DNA of 64,000 bases from a virus (lineage: Duplodnaviria; Caudoviricetes). The position numbers and the translations under genes were made by a program. The stretch lies in IMG/VR virus record IMGVR_UViG_3300037067_019009, positions 148,669-212,668 of that record. One strand, written 5' to 3'. The notes under the pieces were generated by a model that was given only the letters and a program-made list of their open reading frames with translations, did no database searches and was not told where the DNA came from. This document shows, piece by piece, positions 25,808 through 43,808 of the stretch (positions within the stretch are counted from its first letter, which is position 1; each line of letters opens with the position of its first letter).

Positions 25808-25895
25808 TATTATGACGGTGGATTGGATGTACGTATCGTCAGTAGCAGCAATAGCTAGCGAGTTGTAGCTCTATGAGGAGAAGGAGAAACAGATT

Positions 25896-27133: not shown

Positions 27134-27167
27134 AAAGGGGACTTGCCTTATGGTGAGTCCCTTTTTT
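27134..27167 (+). terminator. Intrinsic terminator directly upstream of the 2101-aa gene
   Basis: GGGGACTTGCC-TTAT-GGTGAGTCCC followed by TTTTTT. Confidence 0.75.
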
Positions 27168-27174
27168 AATAAAT

Positions 27175-30100
27175 ATGGAAACTTATCAAAAGCGAGAGCA
27201 TAGTAATAGCCTAGCTAAATGGGGAGCCTCCGCTGGCGCGGTGGCTGCTCTTGTAGTGGGACGTAAAAAGATAGCTGCCTACGCTGTCGGTGGGCTGGAA
27301 AAAGTCGCGGCTAACCTAGCAAAAAGTGAACGAAGTCATGCCGAGTTTGCTGTTACGCGTTGGGTTAGAGACTTGGAGCAGACTGGCGAATCTTTGCGTA
27401 ATGCCGCCGCTGTACAAGTTGGGCAGGCCAGGATGGAGAAGATCCTGTCCACTGGTATAGAAGAAGAGCTTCCTGCTTGGGGAGCCCAACACATAAAAGC
27501 TCTGTTTGGAGCTAAAGGTGAGCACTCTTGGATTTTTGCTGGGGCTCGGCGAGGTGTTCCAGAGATCTCCGGCTATCTGGAGTCCCCAGAGTTTGCTGAC
27601 ATGGTTGAGGCCGCAGGTGGTGTAGCTTCGGCTACTAGAGCGATTCTACGGGCTAGGCAAGCAGCCAATGTAGGGGATCTTTTTACTTCCGGCGGACTTC
27701 CAGAAAACGTGGAGCGGCAGTTAGCGAACGCTCTTCGCGTACATGAGAAACATGCATGGGGGGAGTTCGAGCGTCTAGCCGAGCCCGCTGCCTTTGGCGT
27801 TCATAATGCCGGTAAGGTGGGGTGGGGAAGGCAGCTACTATATGCGAGTGGAACTAAGGAAGCCACCTTATCTGAAGTAGAAGGGATGCTGAGTTCGGGG
27901 TCTGTCTCAGAAGGCATGCGCGAGTCTCTTAACAGATTATTAGGTGATAAGAGAACCATAGAAGAGATCGGGAAGCGCGTAGGGGCAAGCCAGGAGAGGG
28001 TAGAGCAAGTAGTTCGCAACCTGCGTGTAGAGGGGTTGTACAATACAGAGGCTGGGCTAAAAGACCTGCGGGGTCTTTCTGAAGGCATGGCCGGGCTACA
28101 TGACTATCTAGGTACCCACTTTCAAATACCCATAATACCCTACATATCTGGTTTCAACCCACTCAGCATGGCTCCATGGCTCGCCAAGTCTGGGGCCCCC
28201 AAGTCTGCGTTTATCGGTTTTAATGAGACCGAAAAGCAGCTTGGACTTCTAGACAAACTGCGGCCTGGAATGAATCTTTCCGTCTATCAAGGAAAGGCTG
28301 TTGGAGTTAGGTTCGTAGAGGGGGGAGTGGAGACGGCCTCTGAAGTCGAGGGCACTGTAAGATTGTTGCAGTCCGGCGCTGGGGGATTTCAGAGTAGGGT
28401 TGTAGAGAATTTGCTGGCCTCCACAAACCAGGAACCAATCGGCGGAGTCAGGGGCTTTTTTGGGTTCGGGCAGCACCAGCCCTCACTACTGAGTAAGTTG
28501 GGATCGATTTTCAGTAAGTACAGTGATCCAAGATATCCCTCCACGGCACTAGAGCTAATATACGGACAGGGTAAGGACGCACCAGAAGAAGCCGTTAGAT
28601 CCATAACAAGTTTTCTGAAACGCCGAGGACGCATTTCATCTGAGGCTATAGAGCGCCTGGTTTCGGAATCTCCGGGGGTAACTAAGGGCTCACCCATTGA
28701 TGAGGTGCTTAAGAACTTCTCTAGTGATGAGGCAGTAAAAGAATTCTTTTTCAAATATCGTAGAGGCTTACCCGAAGAATATCTTGGAGCATCAGGTAGT
28801 CTTCGTAATTTGTTAAAGGATTTTGATGCGGATCCCCTTGGGGTGATCGGGCGCAAAAAGATATTAGCGGATACGGACTTCTTCACTATAAATCTCCTCG
28901 GCTCCCCCGATCCGATAAGTGGCGTGGACTTGATGCGCCAGGCTCTGCTGGATGAGTACGTATTAAAATACGGAGATCCGATGTGGTCGAACGCTAAGCC
29001 ACTCCTTGAAAGCTTGAAGGGCCTTGGGCTAACTGATAAGGAGTTAGTGGAAGCGGAATCTTTTGTGCACGGCGCTAATCTTTCTAGGTTACTGGGAAGA
29101 GGATCATACAAAGATGCTATTTCGTATATGACCGAGGGTACCCAGTCAGGAAGTGTGCAGCGTACAGCCGAGCAGTTAGTTAACACAAAGCTATCCATTC
29201 TGGAGCCATTTACCAAGCCTAGTAAGGTTGAGGGCTTGCCGGAAGTCTTTGCTATTCGTGAAGGCGAGAGCATTCTTGCGTACATAAACAGAAGCATAAA
29301 AGAAGGCAAGTCGGTTCGGGAAATTTTAGAAGAGTTGCCAAGATCCGCTGTGGTGCAGCAGGGCATACCGGCTTTCTTTAAAGGAATAAAGGATCCGGTG
29401 AACTTTACGACTGGGTCCCTTCCATCTTACTTCATGGCGGAGAGACTCAATACCTCCATAGCGGATTACGGGCTTGGTCTTTCTCCTGAGCACTTAGGCA
29501 GTGGCTGGGATATACTGTCCGGTCTCATATTTAAGAGGGTGCTGCCTGGTTGGGCAGCCTACGAAGCGTGGAACTATCTAAACTATGAGTCTGAAAACGA
29601 TTTCGGGACGAGCCCAAAAGATGTTATTACCAATGTCAGAGCTAGAGCCAGGATAGCTAGAGCTCATCTTACGGGGTGGATGCGGGCGGATGATCTATTC
29701 CCGGGATTTGATCGCAACCCCATACTTGCTCCGATATTATCAAAAGGCAATGTAGATGAAGAGCTTCAGCAGTTGTCTTCCGGCTACGAACCGGTAAGGC
29801 AAGGCAGGTACTGGATGTTTGGAACCGGTACGCCTTTCACCGGTGGAAAGATCCAGTACTATCTACCAGACCCGTACCAGAGAGCTCACTCCAACTGGGA
29901 GTCTGCCGATAATGCTGATCTGTCTACTGCCAGATCGTGGTCTCATTCCATACTACCGACACCTCGTTACCCACTCAGTTTCGTAGAGCACTTCGCAGAT
30001 CCTTACTGGTGGGAGTCCGCTCATTCTATGGGATCTAATCCTGACAGGCCCTATGTTATTTCCGGGCCAATGAGTGACCCCAGTACTCCATGGGGACCAA

Positions 30101-33100
30101 TAGTAAATAGCACGATAGGGCAAGTGCTAAAACCAACTAGGGTTTTGTACCCAGAGTACGATCCTAGAAACATGAAGAGCGGGACAGCTTACTATGGCTA
30201 TACGCCTACTGAGGATGATTACCTGCTAGAGTATGAGCGGAATGAGGGGGACGACTACTCCTATGATGACCTTATACTCTCTGGTCCTACAGCCGCTAGA
30301 ACTATGCCTGCAGGCGCTGTACAGCTGGCTAGCGTTGGTGGGAGATATGGAGGTGGTTATGGGTCGGCTGGAATTGGGTATGGCGGCGCGGGAGAAGGCG
30401 GCTATGGCGGCATAGGGACCGGCGGTGGCGGAGGTTATGGAAATCTTACATCCGGCAGAGCGGTAGTAAGTATGGGGCGCGGCGCCGCTTATCTAGGCAC
30501 CTCTGGAGGAGGACGAGCCAGACTTAAATATCCTCATGGCGCTGAAATAGTTGGTTATCTAGGAGATCCTACTGACACAGAATATCCAGATGTGGTAGGA
30601 CAGTCAGCCTCCAGTCTTAGGGAGCTGGCTGGTATTTATGGTTGGGGAACGGCTGTACTCACTGGAACAAACGATACTTATGGCCTGAGGATGGACGATC
30701 CAAGTGCGGCTTATGGTGCTGGAGCAAGATACTGGAGCGCTAACATTGGTGGCTTGGGAGGAGTCGCTAGTGAAATTGGTAGAAGATTTTTATACAAAAG
30801 GCCAAAGACTGCCGAGTATTACGATCCGGTGCCGAACTCTCTGGCCGACACATGGCTGCCAGGTTCAAGCTACTTCACTAATTTTCAGCGTGGAGACCCA
30901 TATGCTGATAACAATGGTTTGTTGAGGCTTCCAGGAGAGGCTTACGAAAGGGCGCATGGAGTAAAGCTCATGCTTACACGTGCGAGCTCAGTAGGAAAAT
31001 CCCCTAATGAACTGCTGCTCGAGCTTATACACCAGAAAGAGCCCCTGGATGAGGAAGCGGAAAAGATAACAGGTTTGGGTACGCAGCTGCACAAAGTTAT
31101 CCAGTCCCAGTGGAGACGGCAAGGGGTGCTACTCGCGTCTGAAGTTCCTATTTTCGATGACAAAGTTGGAGTGTCCGGCCACATGGACGCGGTTCTTAAT
31201 TGGAATGGCAGTCCGGTGATAGCTGAAATAAAGACTATGTCGGAGAAAAGGTACAATATGGGTGGGCTTTTCCCTGAACATCAGGAACAGCTTAATTTCT
31301 ATATGCATACCACAGGAATAAGCAGGGGATTGATGGTGTACGTTAATAGAGATGATGCAAGGGATGTAAGGACCACTTGGATGGATTACTCCCCTGGGCT
31401 GTACGCCTCTACGATGAACAAGTTGAATTCCGTGCGCAGACAGGCCAAGTCTTTAGTCGATTCTGGAGTCATCTCTAGGGCAGATCTATATGATGATATA
31501 ACGCGCTTCGAAATTCTTAGCGATGTTGCGGCATATAGTGATGAGTTCTATGGCATGCGGGATTACCTGAGCCATCAACGACAAGTAGGACAACTCGATG
31601 ACGCTCAGTTTGAAAGGTTTAAGGCCGCTAAAAAGCGGGCCATGCACTCCAAAGAAAAATACAACCTAGATTCCTACCGATTTGCTGGCAGCAGTACTAC
31701 ACAGAAGAGTTACGTAGTGGATAGGATAGTTGATCCTAATACCATACTAGTTGAGGGCAGCGATACTCCGATACGTCTGGCCGGGGTGAGAGGATCTGGC
31801 GAGCGTATAGCGGAATACTTCTCCAAGCACCACATGGACGGCGGAAACTTGATTCGTGGGTTACTTGGGATGGAGGATGAAGAGTTTTCGTCCCCAGCTG
31901 AGGAAATGTATGCTAGGGTGTATGGTATTCGGAAAGGTTCTGAGATCGATGTGGGGGTAAGCACGGATCCAGAGGAGCAGTACGGCAAAGACATGTTCGG
32001 GACGGAGCGTGTTGTCCTCTACCATAATGGCGTTAACATTAGCCATGACATGCTTATGCGCGGGTTGGCGGTTGAAAAAGAAACCGACTATTCATCTGCT
32101 GGAGTAGAAGCAAGATTTACTCCAATCCAAAGAGGGTTCGGTACCCTGTATGAAGAACTGGCTCACGCGGATACGCCATTCAATACCAAGCTCTCCAAGG
32201 TAAGGAGCCCGGTGGAGGAGTATATTAGAACTCAGGTATATGGGAAGCTGGGAACCTCGTGGTCGCACCCCATAGCCTCCTTCATTACTCCAACAATAGA
32301 GGCTTACGCGGTCAGGGATCCAATACTTGCCGGTGTTTCCATGGCGGCATTTGCTTCGATGTTCGGTAGAACCAAAAGCATGAAGGGCAAACTGGCTTTA
32401 GTTGGTTTGGCCGCTGGAGCTGCGGCTTCCTTGGGATTGAAGGCTCATGAGTTAAGTACAGGGGAGCCATGGATACCAAAGAGGGTACGCAAACGGCGAG
32501 AAATTGAAGAGTACTACGATATCTTAAAGTACACGAAGTACATGGGTCTGTACGAATACGCTAAGAGAGAAGCGAAAAGTAAAGAGTCTTTCGATGTAGA
32601 GGGTTTCCTGTTGGAGGAGGCCACGGCAGGAGACGAGCGTAATCGCATACGTAGGGGCTTAGTTAAACGTAAGGCTAAGTTGAAGCACGATATGATGTCG
32701 TCTACTCCTACTCCAGCCGAGCAGCTTCGTTCAATAAACTCTAAGATAAAAGCGCCCGGTGACAAGTCCGTTAAACTGACAAACAAAGACCAGCTCAAGA
32801 TAATAAATCAAGAGATCAACAGCATAGCTGGCTATAGAAAAGACGTGTCCCTTGGACCGTGGGCTTCCCAAGCCATACTATACAAACAGATGGCTGACCG
32901 TACTATGTATGCTGCGGAACCCACTGATTTTAGGACTATGATGGGAGCTCTGCCTAAGTACGAGCGTGAGATTCTAATCAAGGCCATAGCTAATTCCACA
33001 CCAGAAGAGCGCAAGCGTTTATATGGTCTTTTACCTGATTATGAGAAGCGCCTCCTCGGTCCACATTTAGGGTTCTCCGACAAACTGCAGCGAATGGAGT

Positions 33101-33480
33101 TAGCGGAGTACTTTAAAACTCATACGCTCCCTAGCAAAGACTGGGAGGGGTGGAGAGAAGACGTTCCCTTGGAAGCGCTAAAGATACGCACCATACGCTA
33201 TGAAGGATTGGATCCGATGGACTTCGGTGTTTATCCGCAGGTAGTCGAACAGGTTGATAGGACTGCCGCGAATGTGGAAGTGCCTACAGTGAATGGTAAA
33301 GGTTCTGATATAGAGAACGCGTTAGCCGATGTACTTGCGGGCCAGGGGCTGTCCAATCTAAACGTCCATGTGAGAGTTGTTCCGGACAGGCAGTCTCACG
33401 AGGATGTTATCGATGTTAATATGGATATTCGTCACGATAGGAGAGCAGACTTAGTCTCTGCCCTACGAAAATACTACTAG
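27175..33480 (+). CDS. Tape-measure-position giant protein with PD-(D/E)XK (Cas4/RecB-like) nuclease and SNase-like domains
   Basis: Follows the chaperones; TM-like Gly/Ala segments; GTQLH...E...GHMD...EIKT...QLNFY; VDRIVDPNTI...IRLAGV...DMFG...MLMRGLA. Confidence 0.75.
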   Translation: METYQKREHSNSLAKWGASAGAVAALVVGRKKIAAYAVGGLEKVAANLAKSERSHAEFAVTRWVRDLEQTGESLRNAAAVQVGQARMEKILSTGIEEELPAWGAQHIKALFGAKGEHSWIFAGARRGVPEISGYLESPEFADMVEAAGGVASATRAILRARQAANVGDLFTSGGLPENVERQLANALRVHEKHAWGEFERLAEPAAFGVHNAGKVGWGRQLLYASGTKEATLSEVEGMLSSGSVSEGMRESLNRLLGDKRTIEEIGKRVGASQERVEQVVRNLRVEGLYNTEAGLKDLRGLSEGMAGLHDYLGTHFQIPIIPYISGFNPLSMAPWLAKSGAPKSAFIGFNETEKQLGLLDKLRPGMNLSVYQGKAVGVRFVEGGVETASEVEGTVRLLQSGAGGFQSRVVENLLASTNQEPIGGVRGFFGFGQHQPSLLSKLGSIFSKYSDPRYPSTALELIYGQGKDAPEEAVRSITSFLKRRGRISSEAIERLVSESPGVTKGSPIDEVLKNFSSDEAVKEFFFKYRRGLPEEYLGASGSLRNLLKDFDADPLGVIGRKKILADTDFFTINLLGSPDPISGVDLMRQALLDEYVLKYGDPMWSNAKPLLESLKGLGLTDKELVEAESFVHGANLSRLLGRGSYKDAISYMTEGTQSGSVQRTAEQLVNTKLSILEPFTKPSKVEGLPEVFAIREGESILAYINRSIKEGKSVREILEELPRSAVVQQGIPAFFKGIKDPVNFTTGSLPSYFMAERLNTSIADYGLGLSPEHLGSGWDILSGLIFKRVLPGWAAYEAWNYLNYESENDFGTSPKDVITNVRARARIARAHLTGWMRADDLFPGFDRNPILAPILSKGNVDEELQQLSSGYEPVRQGRYWMFGTGTPFTGGKIQYYLPDPYQRAHSNWESADNADLSTARSWSHSILPTPRYPLSFVEHFADPYWWESAHSMGSNPDRPYVISGPMSDPSTPWGPIVNSTIGQVLKPTRVLYPEYDPRNMKSGTAYYGYTPTEDDYLLEYERNEGDDYSYDDLILSGPTAARTMPAGAVQLASVGGRYGGGYGSAGIGYGGAGEGGYGGIGTGGGGGYGNLTSGRAVVSMGRGAAYLGTSGGGRARLKYPHGAEIVGYLGDPTDTEYPDVVGQSASSLRELAGIYGWGTAVLTGTNDTYGLRMDDPSAAYGAGARYWSANIGGLGGVASEIGRRFLYKRPKTAEYYDPVPNSLADTWLPGSSYFTNFQRGDPYADNNGLLRLPGEAYERAHGVKLMLTRASSVGKSPNELLLELIHQKEPLDEEAEKITGLGTQLHKVIQSQWRRQGVLLASEVPIFDDKVGVSGHMDAVLNWNGSPVIAEIKTMSEKRYNMGGLFPEHQEQLNFYMHTTGISRGLMVYVNRDDARDVRTTWMDYSPGLYASTMNKLNSVRRQAKSLVDSGVISRADLYDDITRFEILSDVAAYSDEFYGMRDYLSHQRQVGQLDDAQFERFKAAKKRAMHSKEKYNLDSYRFAGSSTTQKSYVVDRIVDPNTILVEGSDTPIRLAGVRGSGERIAEYFSKHHMDGGNLIRGLLGMEDEEFSSPAEEMYARVYGIRKGSEIDVGVSTDPEEQYGKDMFGTERVVLYHNGVNISHDMLMRGLAVEKETDYSSAGVEARFTPIQRGFGTLYEELAHADTPFNTKLSKVRSPVEEYIRTQVYGKLGTSWSHPIASFITPTIEAYAVRDPILAGVSMAAFASMFGRTKSMKGKLALVGLAAGAAASLGLKAHELSTGEPWIPKRVRKRREIEEYYDILKYTKYMGLYEYAKREAKSKESFDVEGFLLEEATAGDERNRIRRGLVKRKAKLKHDMMSSTPTPAEQLRSINSKIKAPGDKSVKLTNKDQLKIINQEINSIAGYRKDVSLGPWASQAILYKQMADRTMYAAEPTDFRTMMGALPKYEREILIKAIANSTPEERKRLYGLLPDYEKRLLGPHLGFSDKLQRMELAEYFKTHTLPSKDWEGWREDVPLEALKIRTIRYEGLDPMDFGVYPQVVEQVDRTAANVEVPTVNGKGSDIENALADVLAGQGLSNLNVHVRVVPDRQSHEDVIDVNMDIRHDRRADLVSALRKYY

Positions 33481-33497
33481 GGCGAAATATTCTGTGT

Positions 33498-33513
33498 CTA
33501 CTTGCCTATAATA
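33498..33513 (+). promoter_or_regulatory. Putative phage promoter CTACTTGCCTATAATA
   Basis: 16/16 identical to 51082..51097; intergenic; contains TATAAT. Confidence 0.7.
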
Positions 33514-33543
33514 AATTGTGGCCACGCTTAGGAGGAAATTGTT

Positions 33544-34596
33544 CTGAATACAGTAGATACGCAAGAGAAAGTGAGATTAGGCCTAGATGAGGGGCTACCT
33601 GCAATACAACTGATGAAGTTGGTTCCTGGGCGCACCCCAGGGCAGAAAGCCGCTAACCTTAGAGATATAGTCAGGGACCTAATTAATCGTGGAGAATTGG
33701 CTCCATCTAAGGCTGTCATAGCTAGCCCCGAGCGGGGGTATGCTGATTTATCTTACTCTGAGGTTCTGGAGGAGTACAACGCTCTAATCAAGCGCGATGC
33801 TGTTCCAGTAGAAAAAGTTCCATATGTGTCAGTGTCTTCTAAGGAAACCACCATAGTTATTGGAGATCTGCACACACCAGAGCACAGGATGGATTTACTC
33901 ATGCGTATTGCTAAAGAGCATGAGGGGTCTAGGCTTATAATAGCCGGTGACTTAATGGATTTTCAAAGATTTTCTAAGTTCACTAAAAATGTAAGGTCAG
34001 CGAACCGTAGTCTCGAGCAGCGTATGTCAGTGGTGGAACTTCTTAAGACAGGGACGGCTGTTGTAGACATACTCCGTCATTACTTTTCGGACGTCGTAAT
34101 AAAGCGTGGTAACCATGATATACGTCTAGCTTCAATGTTGTCCCAGTGTTTCTCAGATGGAGCAGAACTCGCGGACTTTTTATTCGAGTCCATGTTTGCG
34201 AATATGCCAAATGTTTCCATGATGAGTTCTGCTATAGAAGATTTCTTTATGCTGAAGCGCGGAGACGCTTGGGTTGGGCACTGGGATTGTATCTCCGCTA
34301 AAGTAACTAATCGCGGCGCTAACGAGGCAGTCGATTGGATGTTGGATAATGACTACATAACAGCTCAAGGGGAATGGAATGTTCTGATACAATTGCACAC
34401 GCATCTAGCCAGTCTTGGAATACATAGAGGTAAACTGGCTATCGAGTGCGGGTGTATGTCTAGGATGCAGGATTATACGTGGGAAAAGCCAGGGAAGTAC
34501 AGATATCCAAGGAATGGCTACTTTGAGCTAGTGCAGTACGATGGGATAACGGATTGGGAGGAGAGTAGGCTTCGTCTTTTGAGGACGAAAGAGTAG
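33544..34596 (+). CDS. Calcineurin-like metallophosphoesterase
   Basis: GDLH, GDLMD, GNHD, H, HTH motifs; GGAGG at 33531 suggests a CTG start at 33544 (GTG 33571 is the alternative). Confidence 0.85.
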   Translation: MNTVDTQEKVRLGLDEGLPAIQLMKLVPGRTPGQKAANLRDIVRDLINRGELAPSKAVIASPERGYADLSYSEVLEEYNALIKRDAVPVEKVPYVSVSSKETTIVIGDLHTPEHRMDLLMRIAKEHEGSRLIIAGDLMDFQRFSKFTKNVRSANRSLEQRMSVVELLKTGTAVVDILRHYFSDVVIKRGNHDIRLASMLSQCFSDGAELADFLFESMFANMPNVSMMSSAIEDFFMLKRGDAWVGHWDCISAKVTNRGANEAVDWMLDNDYITAQGEWNVLIQLHTHLASLGIHRGKLAIECGCMSRMQDYTWEKPGKYRYPRNGYFELVQYDGITDWEESRLRLLRTKE

Positions 34597-34609
34597 CCTA
34601 ATAAACATC

Positions 34610-35527
34610 ATGACGAGTACTATTTTTTATACATGGTCAGGATTAGCTGACGCTTTACTTGCTATGGGAGCAGTGAGAAGTTACTGTAAGGCGTTCAATA
34701 CCACGGTAGATGTTGCTGTGTCTGAGGAGAGCCTGATGCCTATTCTAACTAATGCATGGTTTGTTAGAAAAGTCATACATGTGGCCGCCGGGCAAGAGAT
34801 AGATACAAGTAGCTACGAGTCTACCGTAGACGTCACGGATGTCGATAGGGCAGTTTGCGTGGAGGCCGAACTTCAACTCCGTAGAGAAAGAAAAGCTGTA
34901 ATAGACGCCGAGATAACTAAGGTAGCAGAGAAGCTTGATGTTGCGGAGGACAAAATACAAAAACCGCCGGAGTATCCCATGCTTGAAAGGGACACGCCCA
35001 CCTGGAATAAGTTAATGGGGTATGTGCATTCTATCCACACACAGCTCAATGTGGATTTCGAATTAGATGAGCATCGGCCTCTTATGCCTTCTGTTCCCGG
35101 AATAGCCGAAAGGACTAGAAAATGGCTCAACGCGAACAGGCAGGATATCCGGCCTGGTATTCCTTTTATATTGGTTCAAGGACTGGACTGGCTTGATTCC
35201 TACGGCATGGAGTTTATTTATCCCGACTGTATGGAGTGTATAGTCGTAGACGATCTGGATCTCAGCTTAGTGGTGGGTCTGGTGTCACACAAATTGTGCG
35301 CTGCCGTAGCTGGTCCGGTATCTGGAGGCCTTTCCTATCTAGGATGGGCGGCCAACGTGCAACTAATTATAGAGTTCATCAATAAGGATGTAGAACCTTA
35401 TTGGCAGTTGTCCAGGCATGACAACGCGGTATCCTTTAAGATAGATGACGCGGATAAGGCAATTATGCTGTCTAGAAGCTTAGCCGCTATTTACGAGAAG
35501 CGGCTTGGTGTGGAGGTAGTTTTATAG
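34610..35527 (+). CDS. GT9 (heptosyltransferase-like, GT-B) glycosyltransferase-like protein
   Basis: SGLADALLAMGAVRS...ILTNAWFVRKVI resembles GT9 GIGDvl...llxxxPxvdeVi; VAGPVSGGLSYLGWAANVQLI resembles the GT9 DSGxxHxAxA region. Confidence 0.55.
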   Translation: MTSTIFYTWSGLADALLAMGAVRSYCKAFNTTVDVAVSEESLMPILTNAWFVRKVIHVAAGQEIDTSSYESTVDVTDVDRAVCVEAELQLRRERKAVIDAEITKVAEKLDVAEDKIQKPPEYPMLERDTPTWNKLMGYVHSIHTQLNVDFELDEHRPLMPSVPGIAERTRKWLNANRQDIRPGIPFILVQGLDWLDSYGMEFIYPDCMECIVVDDLDLSLVVGLVSHKLCAAVAGPVSGGLSYLGWAANVQLIIEFINKDVEPYWQLSRHDNAVSFKIDDADKAIMLSRSLAAIYEKRLGVEVVL

Positions 35528-35528
35528 T

Positions 35529-36095: not shown

Positions 36096-36121
36096 TTACA
36101 TGAAGGGGAGGATACCATAAC

Positions 36122-36973
36122 TTGTTAAACTGTGAGGAAAGGGTGCTTTACAGTAATTATGGACGGGATGATGGGCATAGGATATACTGCTGCGATGCTT
36201 TTGCTTTTCTAAAACAAGAAGCGGCAGACACGCGCAAACTTAGAAGTTCTGGTAATGAGGTTGGCTACCGGACAATTGTAACCAGTCCACGTTACAATAC
36301 TGGAAAGGCTTACGGTAGGATAAATGACCGTACGTCTCGTGGAGTCTACCTGGAAGAGATGGAAAAAGCGGGAGAGCTACTTTACGAAGTAGCGGCTGAC
36401 GATTGTGTTTTCTTCTTAAACGTGGGAGACGATTCCGAGTGGCCAGACCGCAGTTGGCAGGTAATGAATGCTTACCGCTTTGCTGGCTGGGATCTAGTCC
36501 AGACTCTGGTCTGGACCAAGCATCAGTCGGGTAGGGGGCATTTTACCCCCATACTGGGAACCAAGCATGTTACTAGCGTGACTGAAAATATTTTTATCAT
36601 GGTAAAGGATCTAAGATTCTACACACTGGATAGACTCGCAGTTGGTGTGGAGTACACGGACAAGAGCAACATAGACAGATTTAACGTTGGTCAGGATCTT
36701 AGGTGCAGGGGGAACTTGTGGTTTATTCCTTACGAGACCACTGGCCGCTCTCACAAAAAGGGGCGCCCGGCCACGTTTCCGGTGAACCTTCCTAAGATGT
36801 GTATAAAACTAAATGGCTGCAAGTACCCGGTTCTTGATCCCTTTGCTGGGTCGCTGACGACCGCTGTAGCGTGTGAGGAGCTTGAGTTACCATATACAGT
36901 ATTGGAGTCCTCAGAGCAGGCGGTAGAATTTGGCATCCAGAGGATACTTAAGGTGTCTAAGTATGGAGACTAA
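36122..36973 (+). CDS. N4-C/N6-A DNA methyltransferase, beta class
   Basis: Motif IV TSPRY before motif I VLDPFAGS; LVWTK; PATFPVNLP. Confidence 0.85.
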   Translation: MLNCEERVLYSNYGRDDGHRIYCCDAFAFLKQEAADTRKLRSSGNEVGYRTIVTSPRYNTGKAYGRINDRTSRGVYLEEMEKAGELLYEVAADDCVFFLNVGDDSEWPDRSWQVMNAYRFAGWDLVQTLVWTKHQSGRGHFTPILGTKHVTSVTENIFIMVKDLRFYTLDRLAVGVEYTDKSNIDRFNVGQDLRCRGNLWFIPYETTGRSHKKGRPATFPVNLPKMCIKLNGCKYPVLDPFAGSLTTAVACEELELPYTVLESSEQAVEFGIQRILKVSKYGD

Positions 36974-37283
36974 TTACGAAATAGAACAGATAGGGGGGGC
37001 CGAAAAAGAGATCTACCGAATAGAAACGGCGGCAGGTTCTATTTTTAACTGTGAGTTCAAGCCCACGCTTAGGGTAGTTGAGTGTGAAAGCAGCAGTGAA
37101 TATGGAGATGTGTTCTTAGAGGGATGGGCAGTCTCCGTTGGAAGGCAGATAAGATTCGTAGGTATAGCCGCGACACCGGAAGTTGGGGGTCTGGTTACAG
37201 TGTCGGACTATCGACCGGTGGATGGGCAGGATGACATGGAAAGGGATAGCGAATTAATAACGAATGTCAGGCGACTACGTTAG
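36963..37283 (+). CDS. Hypothetical protein
   Basis: ATG 36963 overlaps the end of the methyltransferase gene; about 106 aa. Confidence 0.5.
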   Translation: METNYEIEQIGGAEKEIYRIETAAGSIFNCEFKPTLRVVECESSSEYGDVFLEGWAVSVGRQIRFVGIAATPEVGGLVTVSDYRPVDGQDDMERDSELITNVRRLR

Positions 37284-37300
37284 AAAGGGACATAGTTAAA

Positions 37301-37891
37301 ATAAAACCAACACACGAATATAATAACATCCCAGAAGAGTGGACTAGCCCATATGATTGGGCCTACTTCTGTAGACTGGACACGACAGAGGTGGGAGAGG
37401 CCGCGAGAGTGGCGAGAAAAGACGCGGAGTTTTTCAGAGGCACGGGCTATGCTTCGTATGCGTATAATTGTGGGCCTGTAGAAAAAGCGGGGGAGCAGGT
37501 TGTTCGTAGGTTTTTCGACTACTTTAGCATACGATACACTAAGAACGGAGACCCCTACCTTCCCCCGTTTATAGTTAGTGGGCTTAATATAGATGTGCAT
37601 ACCAGGGCCTTAAAATTCAAAGAGCAGTACGATCATTATGGACTAACCGGAGGAAATCTGAATATAGAGAGGTTTCCTGGAATAGTTCCAGAGTTGGGGT
37701 TGCTGCGGTCTGCCGACATCTATGTTTTCTGCGGATTTGATGTGTGCAGCTATGAGGGTTTTTTGTTTGGGTGGACGGACAGTGGGACTCTAGCTGAGGT
37801 GGAACTATCTACCGGGTGCAAATACCCCGCGAAATTTGTAAAGCTATCAAAACTTTATAGTCCCCATTCATTGTTAGATGAGTTATGTTAA
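37301..37891 (+). CDS. Restriction-endonuclease-fold (PD-(D/E)XK-like) phage protein
   Basis: AGEQVV...NIDVHTR...ADIYVFC...FLFGW pattern; frame is open upstream of GTG 37391 to a GAAAGGGA RBS, so the start is uncertain (ATA 37292/37301). Confidence 0.45.
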   Translation: MKPTHEYNNIPEEWTSPYDWAYFCRLDTTEVGEAARVARKDAEFFRGTGYASYAYNCGPVEKAGEQVVRRFFDYFSIRYTKNGDPYLPPFIVSGLNIDVHTRALKFKEQYDHYGLTGGNLNIERFPGIVPELGLLRSADIYVFCGFDVCSYEGFLFGWTDSGTLAEVELSTGCKYPAKFVKLSKLYSPHSLLDELC

Positions 37892-37947
37892 GTTTGGTTC
37901 GGTCAGGTATAGTAAGGTATGGTTTAGTCATGGAGGTAAAAACAAAA

Positions 37948-38259
37948 ATGGAAAACACCAGAGCAGCCACTAACGATTGTAATAAGACGGTAGACGTTCT
38001 TTATAATTACTACGTGAGTGCACACGAATTATTGGGAGTACATGGCAGTACGCTAGAGGGGCGCATTAAAACTTTAGTTGAGATCATAATGCCCCCTGGG
38101 CAGCAACTAGATGCTCTCAAATCCCAACTAACAGACACTCTGTGGAGAGCACTCAATGATATGCGAGAGACTCTCCATGGGATGTACACTCGTAGTTTGG
38201 ACCAACTTGGTGTGGATGCGGGAAATGTTATTCCGCCATCAGGCCAAGGGGTAGGTTAA
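37948..38259 (+). CDS. Hypothetical helical protein
   Basis: Strong RBS GGAGGT at 37932, ATG 37948. Confidence 0.55.
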   Translation: MENTRAATNDCNKTVDVLYNYYVSAHELLGVHGSTLEGRIKTLVEIIMPPGQQLDALKSQLTDTLWRALNDMRETLHGMYTRSLDQLGVDAGNVIPPSGQGVG

Positions 38260-38298
38260 TTTAACTGACTCTGGCCGAACCAATTTCAGTAATATAGG

Positions 38299-38338
38299 AT
38301 AGCCGTGGTGGGGGTAACTTTGCCACGGCTGTATTTTC
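38299..38338 (+). terminator. Terminator-like hairpin directly upstream of the 1821-aa gene
   Basis: ATAGCCGTGGTGGGG-GTAA-CTTTGCCACGGCTGT (GNRA loop) followed by ATTTTC. Confidence 0.65.
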
Positions 38339-38342
38339 AAAT

Positions 38343-41300
38343 ATGCCGATATATGATTACACAAGAGTATCAGTAGGAGATAAGGTTAGAGATAACCAGA
38401 CGCTGGAAGAGGGCACTATTGTCGATATGCAGGCGATGGGCCAGTGGACAGTGCTGATTACCATCGTAGTGGGTCTCTCCGGGATACAGAAAAAGCTGCT
38501 GGTTCAAGTAGAAAGGCCTACGGGAATCGGAGGTTTAGCCACGACCTCTCCAATCTCCACTCTGGAAGTCAGGGCTGACGAGCTGGGTAAGGCCGGGCAG
38601 AAGGTTGTAGCTAAAGCTAAACCTGATAGCATTACACCACAAGTTGCAGTAGAGGCTAGGGGCGCGGCGGGAGGGATAAGCCCAGCTAAGCTTGTAGGTA
38701 AGTCTAAGCTGGAAGAGCTTAGGCTTTATGTAGATAAGACTTATCTCGACAGGCGCATAAATGGGGTAGAGAAGGAAAAGATTCTCTCTCTCATGGACGA
38801 TTTAGCGCGTCTTCCGAAGAGCAGACAGGAAAGCCTCTTACGAGAGATAATACACGGGCCTGACGAGTCTGGTGTTAAAGCCGCTATCAACTCGGCACTC
38901 GCCGAGGCAGGAAAGACTACTTACTCTGAAGAATCTATCGCCACATTTGATTTGCTTGTGACCAGGCATAGTTCACTTATAGGAGCTGAGGCTGAGCATA
39001 TAGCCTTTAAGTCGTCCATTGATATGGGCAAGCGTGCGAGTATGCTCGGCGGGTTGTCAATGGATTATACGGGCACAGCGGCTCCTATGATAAGGGATAT
39101 ATCCGAGGCCTTATCAGCAGGCGTGGATCCCAGGGATTTAGTTGAAGATCTGTTTCAGATTCATAGAGGTAACTTATCTCCCGGTAGGCTTGGTGAGCAC
39201 ACATCTGCTCTTGAGGGAGTCCTGTCCGGTGGTAGATGGTACGATCCATGGTGTATTCGCGATACGGCATGGGATTTAGCGTTAGAGCTGGAAGAAGCGT
39301 TTCCTGGACATACTAAGGTATATAGCCCTAATGAATTTGCTGATGCTGAGTATGAGAAGAAGTTGTCCAGAGAAGGTGGCACACTTCAACCATTCTTTGA
39401 ATCAAGGGCAGAGAATGCTACGCTGCGGTCTATGCATCGGGCTGGTACTAGGCCGAGTGGTTTTCTCCCTACTGCTGGGGTGTCCGTAGCGCAGTACAAC
39501 GAGGGTGTACTTGGTAAACTTATTAGCGGACAGCCTATGGTGGTTGAGCATGAAGGTCTGATGTTCAGAATTACTGGAGCCGCACAGCCGATAGTAGGTA
39601 AGGAGCCTTATCTTATAGGGGAGCTACTAAGCCGCGTGGATCCCAGCAAGGTCGGCATTATGACCGAGGTTTCCGTGGCCGGAGAGGCAGGAATCGGTAC
39701 TGTGCATGAGCTACTATCTAGATTTGTAGGCGGAGAAGGCTACTCCGTTTGGGCCGAGTACTTGACGGGAAAAGATCCTATCTCTAACTTATCAGCTGCT
39801 ATTGAGAACTTTGTTCCTAAGCCAGAAGATCCTAGGTTTGAGGAATTTTTATCTGCCTCTTATGGTGATGCAAGAGATCCTGAGGCTTTGTTCAGATCTA
39901 AGGTAATGTCGAAGATCAGGAAATCTGGCATACCTCAGAGACTCCTTGAGGATGTAGATCTTCTTACTAGGGAACCTGTAATACTGTCCAGTATTTATGA
40001 TGATGCCTTCGTGCTTTATTATAAAAAGGCATTGGAAGAGGCTTACCGTACGCCAGGCCCAGTTGATTTAGGAGCCGTGTTTAATCGTGTATTCGAATCC
40101 AAAGAAACAGATGCCATAATATCTCTTCTGACTCGTAGGGCTGTTATGGGACAGATTGACGTAGACGCCGATGTGTCTCTCTTCGCCGAGCTCACTAAGA
40201 CTAACGAAGGATTTGAAGACTATCTTACTAGGGAAGCAGAGATGCAGCCCATTACAGGGGGCCGGCGGGACGACCCAGTATCGGAGCTTATGAAAAAGGC
40301 TTCTCCCGTGCAAGAAGGAATAGACTACAGAAAAATCCTTCTTGACATGGATCTACATGGGATTACGTTGACCGCGGAAGATATGACTGCGTCTATGTCG
40401 AAGAGCAGGTTCAACGAACTTCTTTTTCAAGGATTGGCGAATGAGGCCGAATTCACTACTGTCAATGGCAAGCTGGTTTTGATCCCGAAAGATCTTCCAT
40501 TATTTTTGAGGCGTTTATCAGAGATCGATACTCTTTCTGGTGGATCGATAGCTGAGGCATTTAAGCTTTCCTACACCACTATAAATGGTAAAGCTGTTCT
40601 GGCTGTTCCTGTTGTAAACGTAGAAACTGGTACTGGGTATAAAGCCGCGGGGCATGCCTCCACTGGGGAAACTATATTGGAAGAACAACGAGGCAGGGGT
40701 CGACTTTTGATAAGCGGGGAGCCAGTAACAGTAGAGCTTCCATGGCATGCTGGATTAAAAGAGCGCCCTGTGTACAATACTTCTTATACGGCAATAGCCG
40801 GAGCCGCCGTGCCAGGAGAAGCTGCTCCGATCTATAAAGTAGCCGCGGGTTATATATCTAGCGCTACCACTCCTATCGAGTATACAGCCGAGATCCGCAG
40901 GCTGCTGGACGTTGTAGAAGGTAAGCAACGCACCATTTTAGGAATAGACATCGAAGCCAGTATGGATCCCTATAGTTTTGGTAGAGTATGGGAGGCCGGG
41001 GTTCAGGCTTATACGAGAGAGGGAGAGGGTAAATTCGCTACGGCGGGCGGTAAGTTATTCACTACTAGGTCTATTACCAAAGAAGAGGCTAGAGGCATGG
41101 AAGTGGTGCAAGTCGGTAGCGAGTCCGAGGTAATAGAAAGAGTTTATAAGGAACTTCGAGGACATCCTGATGCCTACAGTCTGATTCATAATGAGGTGTA
41201 CGATTTTCCACAGTTGGCTAAGAGGGCGGAAGCTCTCGGTATGCCCGAAGAGGTAGTGGGGTATTTCAAATCCCAGACCGCGGATAGAGTCATCGACACT

Positions 41301-43808
41301 ATGCGCACGTCCACCCCACTGTGGAACCCCAATCTGGAAAGCTACTCTCTAGAAAACGTAGCGAAGGCCGCGGGTGTGCGTGAGCTGGCGTGGGTGGAGG
41401 AGCATAGGGCTCCAGCTGACATCCAGACTATGGTAGATGTTTTTAATGAGCAGCTGTTTGGGAAAGGCAGGAAGGCCACCCTAGCTAATCTGCAATCTCT
41501 GGATTTATCTGAAGGCTTAGGAGGTCTTAGCCAAGAAGCCGTTGCCGGTAAGTACTACTGGAATCCAAGAATGGGTAGGCTCTATACATTTGGGATGGAA
41601 GTCGAAGGTGGAAGAGCTTTATACGCTCGTGTTCCTTTATATGATCCATCAATGGATCCTACATTGTCCCCCATAGCTATGCTTTTTGAGGAAGTGCATG
41701 GCTATCCGAACTTACCAAACGTGCCTTACGCGTATATAACACAGCCATGGGTGACAGGTAGGGAGCTATCGGCTAACTTCAAAGAGGTCACGGCGGAAGA
41801 GGGACGGGCTCTATCACAGCGCAAGGTGGAAGACCTTGCCATGAAGCGAATACGCGAGATAGAGAACACGGGGTCTGGTGTTTCCGCTGAGCTGGAACGT
41901 ATACGACTTGCCCATGAGTTCATAGAAGGTAAGTCAGCGTTGCTTACTCCAGAAGTCATGGACGTGGTACAGCAAGAGGTCGCGAGTAAGTTTCCCGGGA
42001 TGCGGGAACGAGCTCCCGGTGGGCTGCTTGATCAGGCATATAGAGAAGCGCTGGATAAGGCCATCTCTAAGAAGGCGGCGTTGTCATCGGACATGATTGA
42101 CTGGGTGACACACTATGTACAAGATCCGAGGATGCTTGACCAGCTCATGTGGATGGAGGAGAACTACTTCGGAAGTAGCACCTATAGAAATATTCTAGCC
42201 CCAGTATACAACGCGCTAGAAAATACTGAGTTGTCACCTCAAGATAGGAGCTATCTATCCAAAACCTTTTTCTCTAAGTTATCTGGCGTGACAAAGAGAC
42301 CGGAACGTACGGTGGAAGTAGACCCAGCAAACCGTAGGATAGCTTTTATGGTAGAGGAGTTCGGTGAGGCCGAGACTATACGGATAGGAGGCGCCGCGGA
42401 GGCCGCGTCGGACGTAGAAAGGGTAGCCAATAGATACGTTAAGACTACATCGTCCGAGCGCTTAGCCAGACTGTTGGAAGGGAAGCTTTCTCCGCGCCAA
42501 TTGACGGACTTTCTTATTCATAGGAATATATCTATTCTTCCTAGGGCTGCTGCCGATGTGGTGATTTCTAGTATAAGAGACGTAGAAATTTTCGAATCTT
42601 TACGCCGCGGTCTTACTCCGTTCGCAAAAAAAATTGGGGGCAGAAAACTTTATAATGCTTTCGCCGTTGGACCGGAAGAAACTTATGAAGAGCTCCTCAG
42701 GATAGGAAGCAAGGCCGACCTGACCAAGTCTCAGTTGTCTTTGCTTGAGGAAGCGGACTTCACTGATTATGGCGCTGATTGGTTAGCGGAAGCTGGTAAG
42801 ACCGAAGAAGCCACGTCTGTCATGCGAGAGATGCTCGAAGAGATTCACAACCCTAATGTGCCGTCTCCTATGGTGAGTGCCTCGGAGCGTACGGCCTTTC
42901 CATCTGGTGATCAAATACCTTACGCCCTCCGAGGCCGAAGAAGCCTAGAATCGGCCACAGAGGAAGCTATAAGAAGGCATCTTAGAGACAATCCAGACGA
43001 TCCTACCGCCGCCATAAACGCCGCGAAACGAGAGATAATCAGGGCGGCCCACAAGGTGTACACTGATCCCAAAGCATTGTCTCTTTTCGATTCTACGGGA
43101 CAAGAAGCCTTAGCGGGCCTACTAGGTATCCCAGCCCTTGAAAACGCCACCAGCATAAATGACATAGCAGATCTCGTCGTTCCTACCGGAAGGCATTCTG
43201 GAAGAAAGCTTGGAGACTTAACCAAAGCGGACCTGCGAGACTTGGTAAGGTATGAGGGGCTCAGTGAGGAGTTCAGGGATACTATTCGCGGCTTCATAAA
43301 GGAACCTTCCGTAGAGATACCTTTTGAGCCTAGAGGAGTAGCTACTAAGCAGGCCGGTATAGGGAAGGTATTGAGCACCATAGATGAAACCGGAAGGAGC
43401 CTTTTGTCTGATGCTAAAGATATGATTAGGGGTGAGGGCAGAGGGGCAGTAATGGCCGCGTTGTTGGCGGCTACAGCTGCTATGGTATACACCGTGGGGC
43501 ATGACGTTGATGTTAGAAGCGATGAGGAAAAGATGACCCCAAGACAAAGATTCCTGCACTTCATAGAAACTAAAGAGACTGCCTTACACCATAGAATTTC
43601 AGTGAACATTGCGGGTGATACTGGGGGACTGCCAGGGGTGTCGGAAGGCGGCATCATTGAGTCTACGCGACAAGCAATAGCCCCATTTCTTCCTGGTGGA
43701 GTAAACGTAGGTGAAGTTTCTGGGCAGGACGATAGAACCAATTATGATAAGAGGCGGCTGGATAAGACAGAGGCGTCTCTACATAAGTACACGGGAAGAT
43801 TGATGTAA
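38343..43808 (+). CDS. Giant putative virion protein with DEDDh (DnaQ-like) 3'-5' exonuclease domain
   Basis: ExoI ILGIDIEA, ExoII IHNEVYDFPQL, VIDTM...SYSLENVA, ExoIII EHRAPADI; C-terminal TM helix AVMAALLAATAAMVYTVG. Confidence 0.75.
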   Translation: MPIYDYTRVSVGDKVRDNQTLEEGTIVDMQAMGQWTVLITIVVGLSGIQKKLLVQVERPTGIGGLATTSPISTLEVRADELGKAGQKVVAKAKPDSITPQVAVEARGAAGGISPAKLVGKSKLEELRLYVDKTYLDRRINGVEKEKILSLMDDLARLPKSRQESLLREIIHGPDESGVKAAINSALAEAGKTTYSEESIATFDLLVTRHSSLIGAEAEHIAFKSSIDMGKRASMLGGLSMDYTGTAAPMIRDISEALSAGVDPRDLVEDLFQIHRGNLSPGRLGEHTSALEGVLSGGRWYDPWCIRDTAWDLALELEEAFPGHTKVYSPNEFADAEYEKKLSREGGTLQPFFESRAENATLRSMHRAGTRPSGFLPTAGVSVAQYNEGVLGKLISGQPMVVEHEGLMFRITGAAQPIVGKEPYLIGELLSRVDPSKVGIMTEVSVAGEAGIGTVHELLSRFVGGEGYSVWAEYLTGKDPISNLSAAIENFVPKPEDPRFEEFLSASYGDARDPEALFRSKVMSKIRKSGIPQRLLEDVDLLTREPVILSSIYDDAFVLYYKKALEEAYRTPGPVDLGAVFNRVFESKETDAIISLLTRRAVMGQIDVDADVSLFAELTKTNEGFEDYLTREAEMQPITGGRRDDPVSELMKKASPVQEGIDYRKILLDMDLHGITLTAEDMTASMSKSRFNELLFQGLANEAEFTTVNGKLVLIPKDLPLFLRRLSEIDTLSGGSIAEAFKLSYTTINGKAVLAVPVVNVETGTGYKAAGHASTGETILEEQRGRGRLLISGEPVTVELPWHAGLKERPVYNTSYTAIAGAAVPGEAAPIYKVAAGYISSATTPIEYTAEIRRLLDVVEGKQRTILGIDIEASMDPYSFGRVWEAGVQAYTREGEGKFATAGGKLFTTRSITKEEARGMEVVQVGSESEVIERVYKELRGHPDAYSLIHNEVYDFPQLAKRAEALGMPEEVVGYFKSQTADRVIDTMRTSTPLWNPNLESYSLENVAKAAGVRELAWVEEHRAPADIQTMVDVFNEQLFGKGRKATLANLQSLDLSEGLGGLSQEAVAGKYYWNPRMGRLYTFGMEVEGGRALYARVPLYDPSMDPTLSPIAMLFEEVHGYPNLPNVPYAYITQPWVTGRELSANFKEVTAEEGRALSQRKVEDLAMKRIREIENTGSGVSAELERIRLAHEFIEGKSALLTPEVMDVVQQEVASKFPGMRERAPGGLLDQAYREALDKAISKKAALSSDMIDWVTHYVQDPRMLDQLMWMEENYFGSSTYRNILAPVYNALENTELSPQDRSYLSKTFFSKLSGVTKRPERTVEVDPANRRIAFMVEEFGEAETIRIGGAAEAASDVERVANRYVKTTSSERLARLLEGKLSPRQLTDFLIHRNISILPRAAADVVISSIRDVEIFESLRRGLTPFAKKIGGRKLYNAFAVGPEETYEELLRIGSKADLTKSQLSLLEEADFTDYGADWLAEAGKTEEATSVMREMLEEIHNPNVPSPMVSASERTAFPSGDQIPYALRGRRSLESATEEAIRRHLRDNPDDPTAAINAAKREIIRAAHKVYTDPKALSLFDSTGQEALAGLLGIPALENATSINDIADLVVPTGRHSGRKLGDLTKADLRDLVRYEGLSEEFRDTIRGFIKEPSVEIPFEPRGVATKQAGIGKVLSTIDETGRSLLSDAKDMIRGEGRGAVMAALLAATAAMVYTVGHDVDVRSDEEKMTPRQRFLHFIETKETALHHRISVNIAGDTGGLPGVSEGGIIESTRQAIAPFLPGGVNVGEVSGQDDRTNYDKRRLDKTEASLHKYTGRLM

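Follow-up and report, generated by a model that had tools for sequence, protein, structure and literature searches.

The window of 64,000 nucleotides analysed in this study constitutes the last 64 kb (3' end) of the 212,668-bp IMG/VR virus contig IMGVR_UViG_3300037067_019009, whose completeness is estimated by CheckV at 84%. Its tail module encodes two giant proteins which each harbor a predicted nuclease: P0001 (giant 1) contains an insert of the PD-(D/E)XK type and P0002 (giant 2) a 3'-5' exonuclease of the DEDDh type. Both open reading frames (ORFs) were found as originally predicted, at 27175-33480 (2101 residues) and 38343-43808 (1821 residues) on the + strand. Since relatives of both giants are virion proteins in the cultured Bacillus phage 0305phi8-36, it is probable that enzymes able to cut DNA enter the cell together with the genome of these phages. 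The evidence comprises the identity of the two domains, the conservation of their catalytic residues, the synteny of the locus and the presence of the Bacillus-phage counterparts in virions. We regard it as an even chance that P0001 and P0002 are two large internal tail proteins with competent-looking nucleases, which are delivered to the host and act at entry.

A DnaQ-like exonuclease domain in giant 2

38343-43808, + strand: giant 2 (P0002, 1821 residues), tape-measure-slot protein at the position of gp146 of 0305phi8-36, assigned from its location relative to gp145 and the hub
38343-38522, + strand: strongly conserved N-terminal module (DYTRVxVGDKVRDNQTLEEG) common to the P0002 clade, from invariant columns in the alignment
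40890-41522, + strand: DEDDh (DnaQ-like) 3'-5' exonuclease domain, residues ~850-1060 (D869, E871, N950, D954, H1021, D1026)
43443-43499, + strand: Gly/Ala-rich hydrophobic segment, residues 1701-1719 (Kyte-Doolittle window 1.74), conserved in six of six members

The exonuclease of giant 2 is recognizable from both its sequence and its predicted structure. A profile of the domain built from the P0002 family matches the PolC-type exonuclease structure 2p1j over its whole length (E=1.3e-8), and an AlphaFold model of the P0002 domain (pLDDT 86.4) retrieves RNase T and the exonuclease domains of PolB as top PDB matches in Foldseek (probability 1.0). Among the top 50 PDB and the top 50 viral matches of this search, almost all are DnaQ-type exonucleases or proteins that carry them, and none is a structural protein. 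No Pfam family scores above its cut-off, the best being RNase_H_2 with 20.1 versus 22 bits.

Word-index and full HMMER searches defined a P0002 family with five other giants of 1786-2110 residues plus a fragment. The conserved N-terminal module, the DEDDh residues, the hydrophobic segment and a C-terminal motif are common to all six giants. In the exonuclease, the residues of ExoI (D-x-E, D869/E871) and ExoII (N-x3-(F/Y)-D, N950/D954 in HNEVYD, which aligns with the ExoII region of PolB) are invariant in all six members, and the spacing of ExoIII (H-x4-D, H1021/D1026 in HRAPAD) is retained in five of them, with P0020 containing an 11-residue insertion between H and D. This invariance of the DEDDh residues (6/6) persists despite an overall identity of ~23%. 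The profile, the model, the Foldseek matches and the conserved residues thus bear out the proposed DEDDh exonuclease with intact motifs. An assignment of P0002 as a diverged DNA polymerase was considered and rejected, as the exonuclease is not followed by polymerase motifs and a separate DNA polymerase A is encoded far from P0002 in the same genome (G000 28890-30032, minus strand), which also implies that P0002 is not the proofreading subunit of this enzyme.

Outside the P0002 clade, relatives of the exonuclease were seen only by profile hidden Markov models (HMMs) with the HMMER filters turned off, and a tblastn search of GenBank phages with the exonuclease region of P0002 gave no match. The six-member exonuclease profile matches gp095 of Bacillus phage vB_BceM_WH1 (WH1) with E=2.7e-9, and weaker matches are located in the giants that occupy the same position, here termed slot 2, in Bacillus phage vB_BauM_KLEB27-3 (KLEB27-3), Moorella phage MTATph1 and the contigs L008 and L009. 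ExoI, ExoII and ExoIII are legible in this order in WH1, KLEB27-3, L009 and the Moorella phage, with an insertion of 100-150 residues between ExoI and ExoII, and the D-x-E residues of ExoI are also found in L008 and in gp146. In L008, ExoI and ExoIII are clear and ExoII is not. An hhalign comparison of the six clade members with these five outsiders gives a probability of 95% (E=2.5e-8), and an HMM built from all 11 sequences finds gp146, which was outside its training set, with E=7.5e-8 and the ExoI motif YLDIETTG. A PDB profile search with the five out-of-clade regions alone has Exonuclease I and RB69 polymerase as its top three matches at E~0.5, which we do not count as evidence. Along the slot-2 proteins, the position of the exonuclease ranges from ~aa 100 to ~aa 1240, with the domain located at residues ~85-395 of WH1 gp095 and ~1227-1720 of gp146. 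As judged from these alignments, the DEDDh exonuclease is an old and nearly universal slot-2 component of the lineage.

Properties of the slot-2 proteins

A tape-measure role was assigned to gp146 from its length and the 486-nm tail of 0305phi8-36, with only its last 60 residues being alignable to relatives (Hardies et al., 2007; PMC2147016). Its GenBank annotation reads 'identified as virion protein by mass spectrometry'. A profile covering the last 130 residues of the P0002 family matches the extreme C-termini of other slot-2 proteins, including Moorella CDS0031 (E=1e-5), KLEB27-3 gp034 (E=0.0018), gp146 (E=0.037) and WH1 gp095 (E=0.078). No significant match to a giant 2 from outside the clade was obtained with a sub-profile of the N-terminal module among the loci scanned, which did not include WH1 and KLEB27-3. 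Because they share the exonuclease domain and the C-terminal motif, the slot-2 proteins are, on sequence grounds, one fast-evolving family. In the Moorella phage MTATph1 (L004:23747-31103), the slot-2 giant was apparently split by the insertion of a transposase, with CDS0027 (1309 residues) holding the exonuclease and CDS0031 (313 residues) the C-terminal motif of the family.

The original prediction had described both giants as tape-measure-like. The slot-2 proteins vary in length from 1267 to 3287 residues across relatives, which in comparison with the near-constant giant 1 is consistent with ruler-like behaviour, whereas giant 1 stays near 2000 residues and a tape-measure role for both proteins is not borne out. 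Look-ups of P0002 and of the core of P0001 in the ESM Atlas gave only unnamed viral clusters, below 0.85. The predicted Gly/Ala-rich hydrophobic stretches near both C-termini were located at residues 1740-1758 of P0001 and 1701-1719 of P0002, and both are conserved in the respective families. Inspected by eye across all loci, the C-termini of both giants have a common layout, in which such a segment is separated by 50-100 residues from alternating hydrophobic strands and a motif of the type D-(D/N)-R. A common origin of giant 1 and giant 2 is nevertheless not supported, as an hhalign comparison of the two families is not significant.

A RecB-like nuclease insert in giant 1

27175-33480, + strand: giant 1 (P0001, 2101 residues), orthologue of 0305phi8-36 gp145 by BLASTP and position
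29377-30948, + strand: conserved gp145-family core, residues 735-1258, with a Gly-rich tract (residues ~1055-1115) and invariant GDPY and RLPGEAYE motifs
30949-31512, + strand: PD-(D/E)XK insert (RecB/Cas4-like, cysteine-free), residues 1259-1446 (H1306, D1338, E1351, K1353, Q1372, Y1376)
31702-32109, + strand: probable SNase-like OB-fold region, residues ~1510-1645, from a weak profile match, catalytic residues not conserved
32392-32448, + strand: Gly/Ala-rich hydrophobic segment, residues 1740-1758 (Kyte-Doolittle 19-residue window 1.41), present in the giant-1 family consensus

Giant 1 resembles gp145 in sequence, with 31% identity over 1,504 aligned columns (residues 735-2099, 596 bits in BLASTP), and occupies the same slot directly after the two-gene chaperonin. 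As for gp146, the GenBank annotation of gp145 is 'identified as virion protein by mass spectrometry'. Thirteen further giants on jumbo-phage contigs are homologues of giant 1. A search of GenBank phage DNA with giant 1 gave no match, and neither did a PDB profile search with the gp145-family core, for which the AlphaFold model (residues 735-1262, pLDDT 43.6) is too poor for a fold search.

The core is followed by the nuclease insert, whose motifs are H1306, D1338 (in GHMD), E1351-I-K1353 and Q1372..Y1376. PHROG 1706/1990, annotated as 'Cas4-domain exonuclease', matches residues 1269-1396 with E=5.8e-19, a profile of the insert matches the Cas4 structure 4ic1 with E=0.012, and Pfam PDDEXK_1, with 17.1 bits, falls short of its cut-off of 22 bits. 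The four cysteines that coordinate the Fe-S cluster in genuine Cas4 and AddB proteins have no counterpart in the insert, where residues 1259-1446 include no cysteine at all, and the domain is thus not an Fe-S Cas4 and instead a cluster-free RecB-like nuclease. The RecB/Cas4-type domain that had been predicted and its intact motifs were confirmed.

The insert is present in five of 14 aligned giant-1 proteins, while in the other nine a short linker of ~20-45 residues joins RLPGEAYE to ILADVAPYS. After addition of gp145, which bears the domain at the identical site, the Moorella protein and giant 1 of contig L007, it is found in seven of 17 proteins and absent in ten. H, D, (D/E)-x-K and Q-x3-Y are retained in six of the seven bearers, the exception being the phage of contig L002. 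Catalytic residues are thus kept among homologues of both giants, at the DEDDh positions in 6/6 members and in the PD-(D/E)XK domain in 6/7 bearers, and the alignments place both nuclease domains under purifying selection. The predicted pairing of complementary nucleases finds less support, since an insert that is optional (absent in 10/17) beside an exonuclease that is nearly universal makes an obligate complementary pair unlikely.

In a tree of giant 1 calculated without the insert, its bearers form one clade (support 0.998), with gp145 located apart beside a nuclease-free protein. The identities between inserts track those between whole proteins, which indicates vertical inheritance, and a scenario of ancestral presence followed by losses fits better than recent mobility. 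Word-index searches found no free-standing relatives of the domain, and when viral contigs were searched for patterns of the nuclease region, no match was confirmed. The PD-(D/E)XK domain is, from these comparisons, an optional insert at one fixed site of gp145-type proteins, beside a probable SNase-like fold. This adjoining region, kept in nearly all members of the giant-1 family, weakly matches the thermonuclease 3sr1 in a profile comparison (E=0.036), and sub-threshold Pfam SNase matches (E>=0.029) occur in four of 11 members. The counterpart of the SNase motif RLxxxD/E is RLAGV(K/R), in which the acidic residues are absent, and residues ~1510-1645 of P0001 are probably an inactive, nucleic-acid-binding SNase-like fold.

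Two rearrangements were observed close to the insertion site. P0004, a homologue of P0001, contains a LAGLIDADG-type intein of ~520 residues (Pfam PF14528, with C...HN boundaries), which is located straight after the invariant GDPY (aligned after residue 1243 of P0001) and precedes the insertion site of the nuclease by 16 residues, and this placement marks GDPY as a functionally critical spot. In KLEB27-3 (L012:11505-18658), the gp145 homologue is divided between two genes, gp031 (1340 residues) and gp033 (677 residues), which flank an unrelated 211-residue ORF, and the split point approximately coincides with the site of the PD-(D/E)XK insert in other phages.

Organization of the tail module

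25896-26567, + strand: tail chaperonin gene 1, gp143-like, 223 residues, whose C-terminus (residues 122-214) matches the N-terminus of gp144
26571-27131, + strand: tail chaperonin gene 2, gp144 homologue, 186 residues (BLASTP E=6e-10 to gp144, E=2e-4 to gp143)
44134-51054, + strand: giant 3 (P0003, 2306 residues), baseplate hub, gp147 homologue with C-terminal M23 peptidase, from PHROG, BLASTP and Pfam

Every sizeable ORF of the window is located on the + strand. In scans against PHROG, a tail sheath and tube paralogues were recognized together with a giant of the hub type that contains an M23 peptidase, and BLASTP against the annotated proteins of 0305phi8-36 revealed collinearity from gp136 to gp151, which includes the sheath (gp137/139), the tube (gp140, with the paralogous gp141), gp142, the chaperonin gp143/144, gp145, the hub gp147, gp150 and the gpJ-like gp151. 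A protein-level search of GenBank phages with the conserved part of giant 1 retrieved only six records, two of 0305phi8-36 and one each of Moorella phage MTATph1 and the Bacillus phages KLEB27-3, WH1 and Edson, all of them jumbo myoviruses of Firmicutes. By these similarities, the source is a jumbo myovirus of the 0305phi8-36 type.

The assignment of chaperones upstream and a hub downstream of the giants was substantiated by homology to gp143/144 and gp147. In 0305phi8-36, a domain is common to both chaperonin genes (PMC2147016), and this arrangement recurs in the window, where the C-terminus of the 223-residue ORF resembles the N-terminus of the next (E=0.001). The hub P0003 matches PHROG 20474 with E=6e-155, a family to which gp147 itself aligns with 2729 bits, and gp147 with E=5e-62 in BLASTP; gp147 contains the hub domain of T4 gp27 (PMC2147016). 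The wall hydrolases had been placed on the hub gene, which holds for the M23 peptidase (Pfam E=2e-35), while an Amidase_3 protein is additionally encoded by a free-standing gene between the giants.

The order of giants 1, 2 and 3 is kept in all relatives with a locus that covers the three positions, and the synteny of chaperone, giant, giant and hub is conserved throughout the lineage. The window shares with 0305phi8-36 this order following a two-gene chaperonin, the similarity of P0001 to gp145 including the nuclease insert and that of P0003 to gp147. It differs in that P0002 resembles gp146 only in the exonuclease domain and the C-terminal motif, and in that seven extra genes separate the giants, which are adjacent in 0305phi8-36. 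The two giants are thus not neighbouring genes as initially described, and the third giant is the hub. The gene of P0002 is located between the tail chaperones and the hub, but this interval also holds giant 1 and the seven genes.

Further downstream, at 52425-53585 of the window, a gene for a glycosyltransferase with an SEC-C motif directly follows a gp25-like sheath-initiator gene, and the related contig L002 has this gene in the corresponding place (25578-26333).

Genes between the giants and regulatory signals

33571-34596, + strand: calcineurin-like metallophosphoesterase, 341 residues (Pfam Metallophos, 29.1 bits, above cut-off)
34610-35527, + strand: conserved protein of 305 residues, with homologues at the same position in L002 and L007
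35529-36095, + strand: N-acetylmuramoyl-L-alanine amidase, 188 residues (Pfam Amidase_3, E=5.8e-39)
36122-36973, + strand: N6/N4 DNA methyltransferase, 283 residues (Pfam N6_N4_Mtase, E=5.5e-27)
27134-27167, + strand: terminator-like hairpin and T-run, read from the sequence, ending 8 nt before the start codon of P0001 in AAATATG context
38301-38337, + strand: hairpin (AGCCGTGG...CCACGGCT) with T-rich tail, read from the sequence, just upstream of the start codon of P0002 in AAATATG context

Besides the four proteins listed, the seven genes include three small ORFs. The metallophosphoesterase matches PHROG 221 (E=4e-12) and, weakly, PHROG 1745 (E=5e-5), which is annotated as 'DNA transfer protein' and may correspond to A1 of phage T5; PDB searches with the protein gave nothing. 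It follows giant 1 in the window, in L002, in the contig of P0024 and in L008, and in L007 there is a weak alignment only. All of these loci belong to the clade whose giant 1 bears the nuclease, and in this clade such a gene is located after giant 1 in each relative. The protein of 305 residues, for which no Pfam, PHROG or PDB match was found, has a gene of like length and position in the P0024 contig.

In 0305phi8-36, WH1 and L009, the giants are adjacent with no intervening genes. L007 (15432-17399) and the P0024 contig contain a complete gene of a family-A DNA polymerase, with exonuclease and polymerase domains, between giant 2 and the hub, and in L007 (7189-8963) a ClpP-like protease and an RRXRR-domain protein are encoded among the inter-giant genes.

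Neither giant gene has an obvious Shine-Dalgarno sequence, and both start in an AAATATG context located a few bases after a hairpin. The hairpin at 27134-27167 is not listed in a simple terminator scan, and a promoter and terminator scan of the window revealed no enrichment compared to shuffles. Hairpin and start context may throttle the expression of tail proteins required in low copy number.

Discussion

The described features suggest that the nucleases of P0001 and P0002 belong to virion proteins, a notion with indirect experimental support from the mass spectrometry of gp145, to which P0001 is homologous, and of gp146, whose slot is occupied by P0002. Several observations weigh against a delivery of both proteins at entry. 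Neither giant is matched by the tape-measure families of Pfam or PHROG, and P0002 and gp146 are not significantly similar in BLAST or in a family-level hhalign comparison over full-length gp146, so that the two are linked by their slot, by the exonuclease domain and by a short motif at the C-terminus (E=0.037). The non-structural-looking genes between the giants and the DNA polymerase A that follows giant 2 in two relatives would leave room for a role outside the virion. In L002, the closest syntenic relative, the PD-(D/E)XK domain is degenerate (DIE for EIK, KLNFL for QLNFY) and ExoIII carries an 11-residue insertion, so that catalysis is dispensable in at least one phage. The search with the 11-sequence exonuclease HMM recovered nothing convincing in giant 2 of L010 or L011. 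In addition, a folded domain of 25 kDa would be too big for the ~4-nm lumen of the tube and would thus have to travel unfolded or reside in a wider cavity. For this uncultured phage itself, the support comes from its sequence.

Some of these observations would equally be accounted for if P0002, and perhaps the inter-giant genes, were a non-structural island of DNA metabolism within the tail module, whose exonuclease serves replication, recombination or repair and is not packaged. The metallophosphoesterase and the methyltransferase between the giants, the polymerase gene after giant 2 in two relatives and the missing tape-measure family match and full-length similarity of P0002 to gp146 would all conform to this scenario. 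It does not explain why the exonuclease-bearing giant fills its slot without intervening genes in 0305phi8-36, WH1 and L009, why gp146 was identified in virions by mass spectrometry and why the C-terminal hydrophobic segment and motif are shared, and it would leave the phage without a protein in the tape-measure slot, which makes it unlikely in our view. A similarly improbable scenario views the nuclease folds as non-cutting modules with nucleic-acid-binding or structural function, such as clamps on the genome end in neck or tail. An active nuclease beside packaged DNA would indeed be a hazard, catalytic residues have apparently been lost from the adjoining SNase-like region and the L002 phage has a degenerate PD-(D/E)XK domain and an interrupted ExoIII. 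Yet six DEDDh positions (the five catalytic ones and N950) are invariant at ~23% identity and legible in distant members, and six of seven PD-(D/E)XK copies retain all catalytic residues. Such retention in divergent proteins points to selection on catalysis and not on the fold alone.

The nucleases might also act during virion assembly instead of entry, by trimming the DNA end that enters the tail at head-tail joining or by processing DNA in the producing cell. In other long-tailed phages the N-terminus of the tape measure is the head-proximal end, and with the same orientation the exonuclease near the N-terminus of giant 2 in WH1, KLEB27-3 and L009 would be close to the genome end. A contact between genome end and tape measure in the neck of long-tailed phages is described in PMC11661146. 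Since such trimming is not known to be needed by any phage and the position of the exonuclease varies from ~aa 100 to ~aa 1240, unlike a fixed contact point, we consider a role in assembly to be quite improbable. Even less probable is a purely selfish nature of the PD-(D/E)XK insert as a homing-type nuclease that spreads in-frame among gp145 alleles with no benefit for the phage. This would agree with its patchy distribution on the giant-1 tree, where it is confined to one clade and 0305phi8-36, and with the apparent insertion hotspot, defined by the intein of P0004 16 residues upstream and the nearby gene split with an extra ORF in KLEB27-3. In contrast, domain identities follow those of the host proteins, which gives no indication that the domain was transferred recently, and it groups with RecB/Cas4 exonucleases and not with known homing endonucleases. 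Nuclease-free proteins moreover retain a short linker alignable to the D..G..G..D strand, a leftover which suggests deletion. The DEDDh domain would in this case remain unexplained.

For nucleases that are delivered with the virion, we infer a location of the giants in the tail lumen, their ejection and membrane insertion, and the timing and substrate of the enzymes. The two-gene chaperonin would help to build both giants into the lumen, and upon contraction of the sheath they would exit via the tube, either preceding the leading end of the genome or accompanying it. Their hydrophobic segments would then engage the membrane, and the nuclease domains would refold on the cytoplasmic side, where they could act on nucleic acid before phage genes are expressed. 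The most likely actions would be a trimming or resection of the terminal repeats of the genome, which would permit annealing and the escape from host exonucleases, or, just as conceivably, a breakdown of nucleic acids of host or defence origin. The genome of 0305phi8-36 is non-permuted with a 6.5-kb terminal repeat (PMC3357382), and an arriving exonuclease could thus expose complementary repeat strands for annealing. Taken to its full extent, the proposal describes a pre-assembled, tail-borne machine for the processing of DNA ends, in which the slot-2 DEDDh exonuclease and, in some lineages, a RecB-like nuclease and an SNase-like DNA clamp on the gp145-type protein are threaded in with the genome end and, ahead of phage gene expression, either resect or trim the long terminal repeats or degrade nucleic acids of host or defence origin. 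In this complete form, we regard it as tentative and rather doubtful.

Proteins with related properties are known from other systems. The virion-delivered proteins gpN of phage Mu and gp2 of T4 bind DNA ends, which they protect or join, and have no known nuclease domains; their likeness to the giants would be that they travel with the genome and handle its ends right after entry. Tape measures with a peptidoglycan hydrolase as cargo, such as the families that share M23 domains, also combine a globular catalytic domain in a tail-lumen protein with a hydrophobic C-terminal segment. They differ in that the cargo described here would act on nucleic acid, with the wall hydrolases of this lineage residing on the hub. 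The closest precedent is gp96 of Thermus phage P23-45 (bioRxiv 10.1101/2022.12.01.518664), in which a tape measure is fused to an RNA polymerase of the virion whose action follows delivery. It resembles the giants in the presence of a nucleic-acid enzyme within a giant protein of tape-measure type, which is thought to be threaded through the tail for the start of infection. The differences concern the enzyme, which in gp96 is an experimentally validated RNA polymerase of a siphovirus and here two predicted nucleases, one on each of two myovirus proteins; P0001 and P0002 are unrelated to gp96 in sequence. As a looser analogue, the polyvalent proteins of phages and conjugative elements are likewise very large and multidomain, with early-acting enzymatic domains and a proposed entry into the host together with DNA (Iyer et al., 2017; PMC5512222). 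These contain many effector domains and often a processing peptidase, and PMC5512222 does not mention tape measures, whereas P0001 and P0002 harbor one or two enzyme domains inside conserved structural scaffolds.

A nuclease in gp145 or gp146 is mentioned neither in the GenBank record nor in PMC2147016 and PMC3357382, and a limited literature search found no link between tape measures and DEDD exonucleases. What appears to be new from our comparisons is the presence of the exonuclease beyond the P0002 clade, in the slot-2 proteins of WH1, KLEB27-3, MTATph1, two metagenomic relatives and in gp146. Within the same limits, the tape measure of P23-45 is the only other tail-lumen protein found to bear a nucleic-acid enzyme.

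Proteins of the tail lumen are usually regarded as rulers and as tools to breach the cell wall. In the lineage described here, the protein in the tape-measure slot carries a DEDDh exonuclease with intact catalytic residues as a conserved part, and the neighbouring gp145-type protein, a proven virion component, often bears a second nuclease. The idea is directly testable, since the exonuclease is found in four cultured relatives, among which 0305phi8-36 additionally has the PD-(D/E)XK domain. If the enzymes enter the cell, it would be necessary to rethink how the genome ends of these phages are handled upon arrival, by what means the entering genome evades host exonucleases and defence systems and how a globular enzyme passes a 4-nm tube. 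If the proposed machine exists, a step in the establishment of the genome would be carried out wholly by enzymes borne by the virion.

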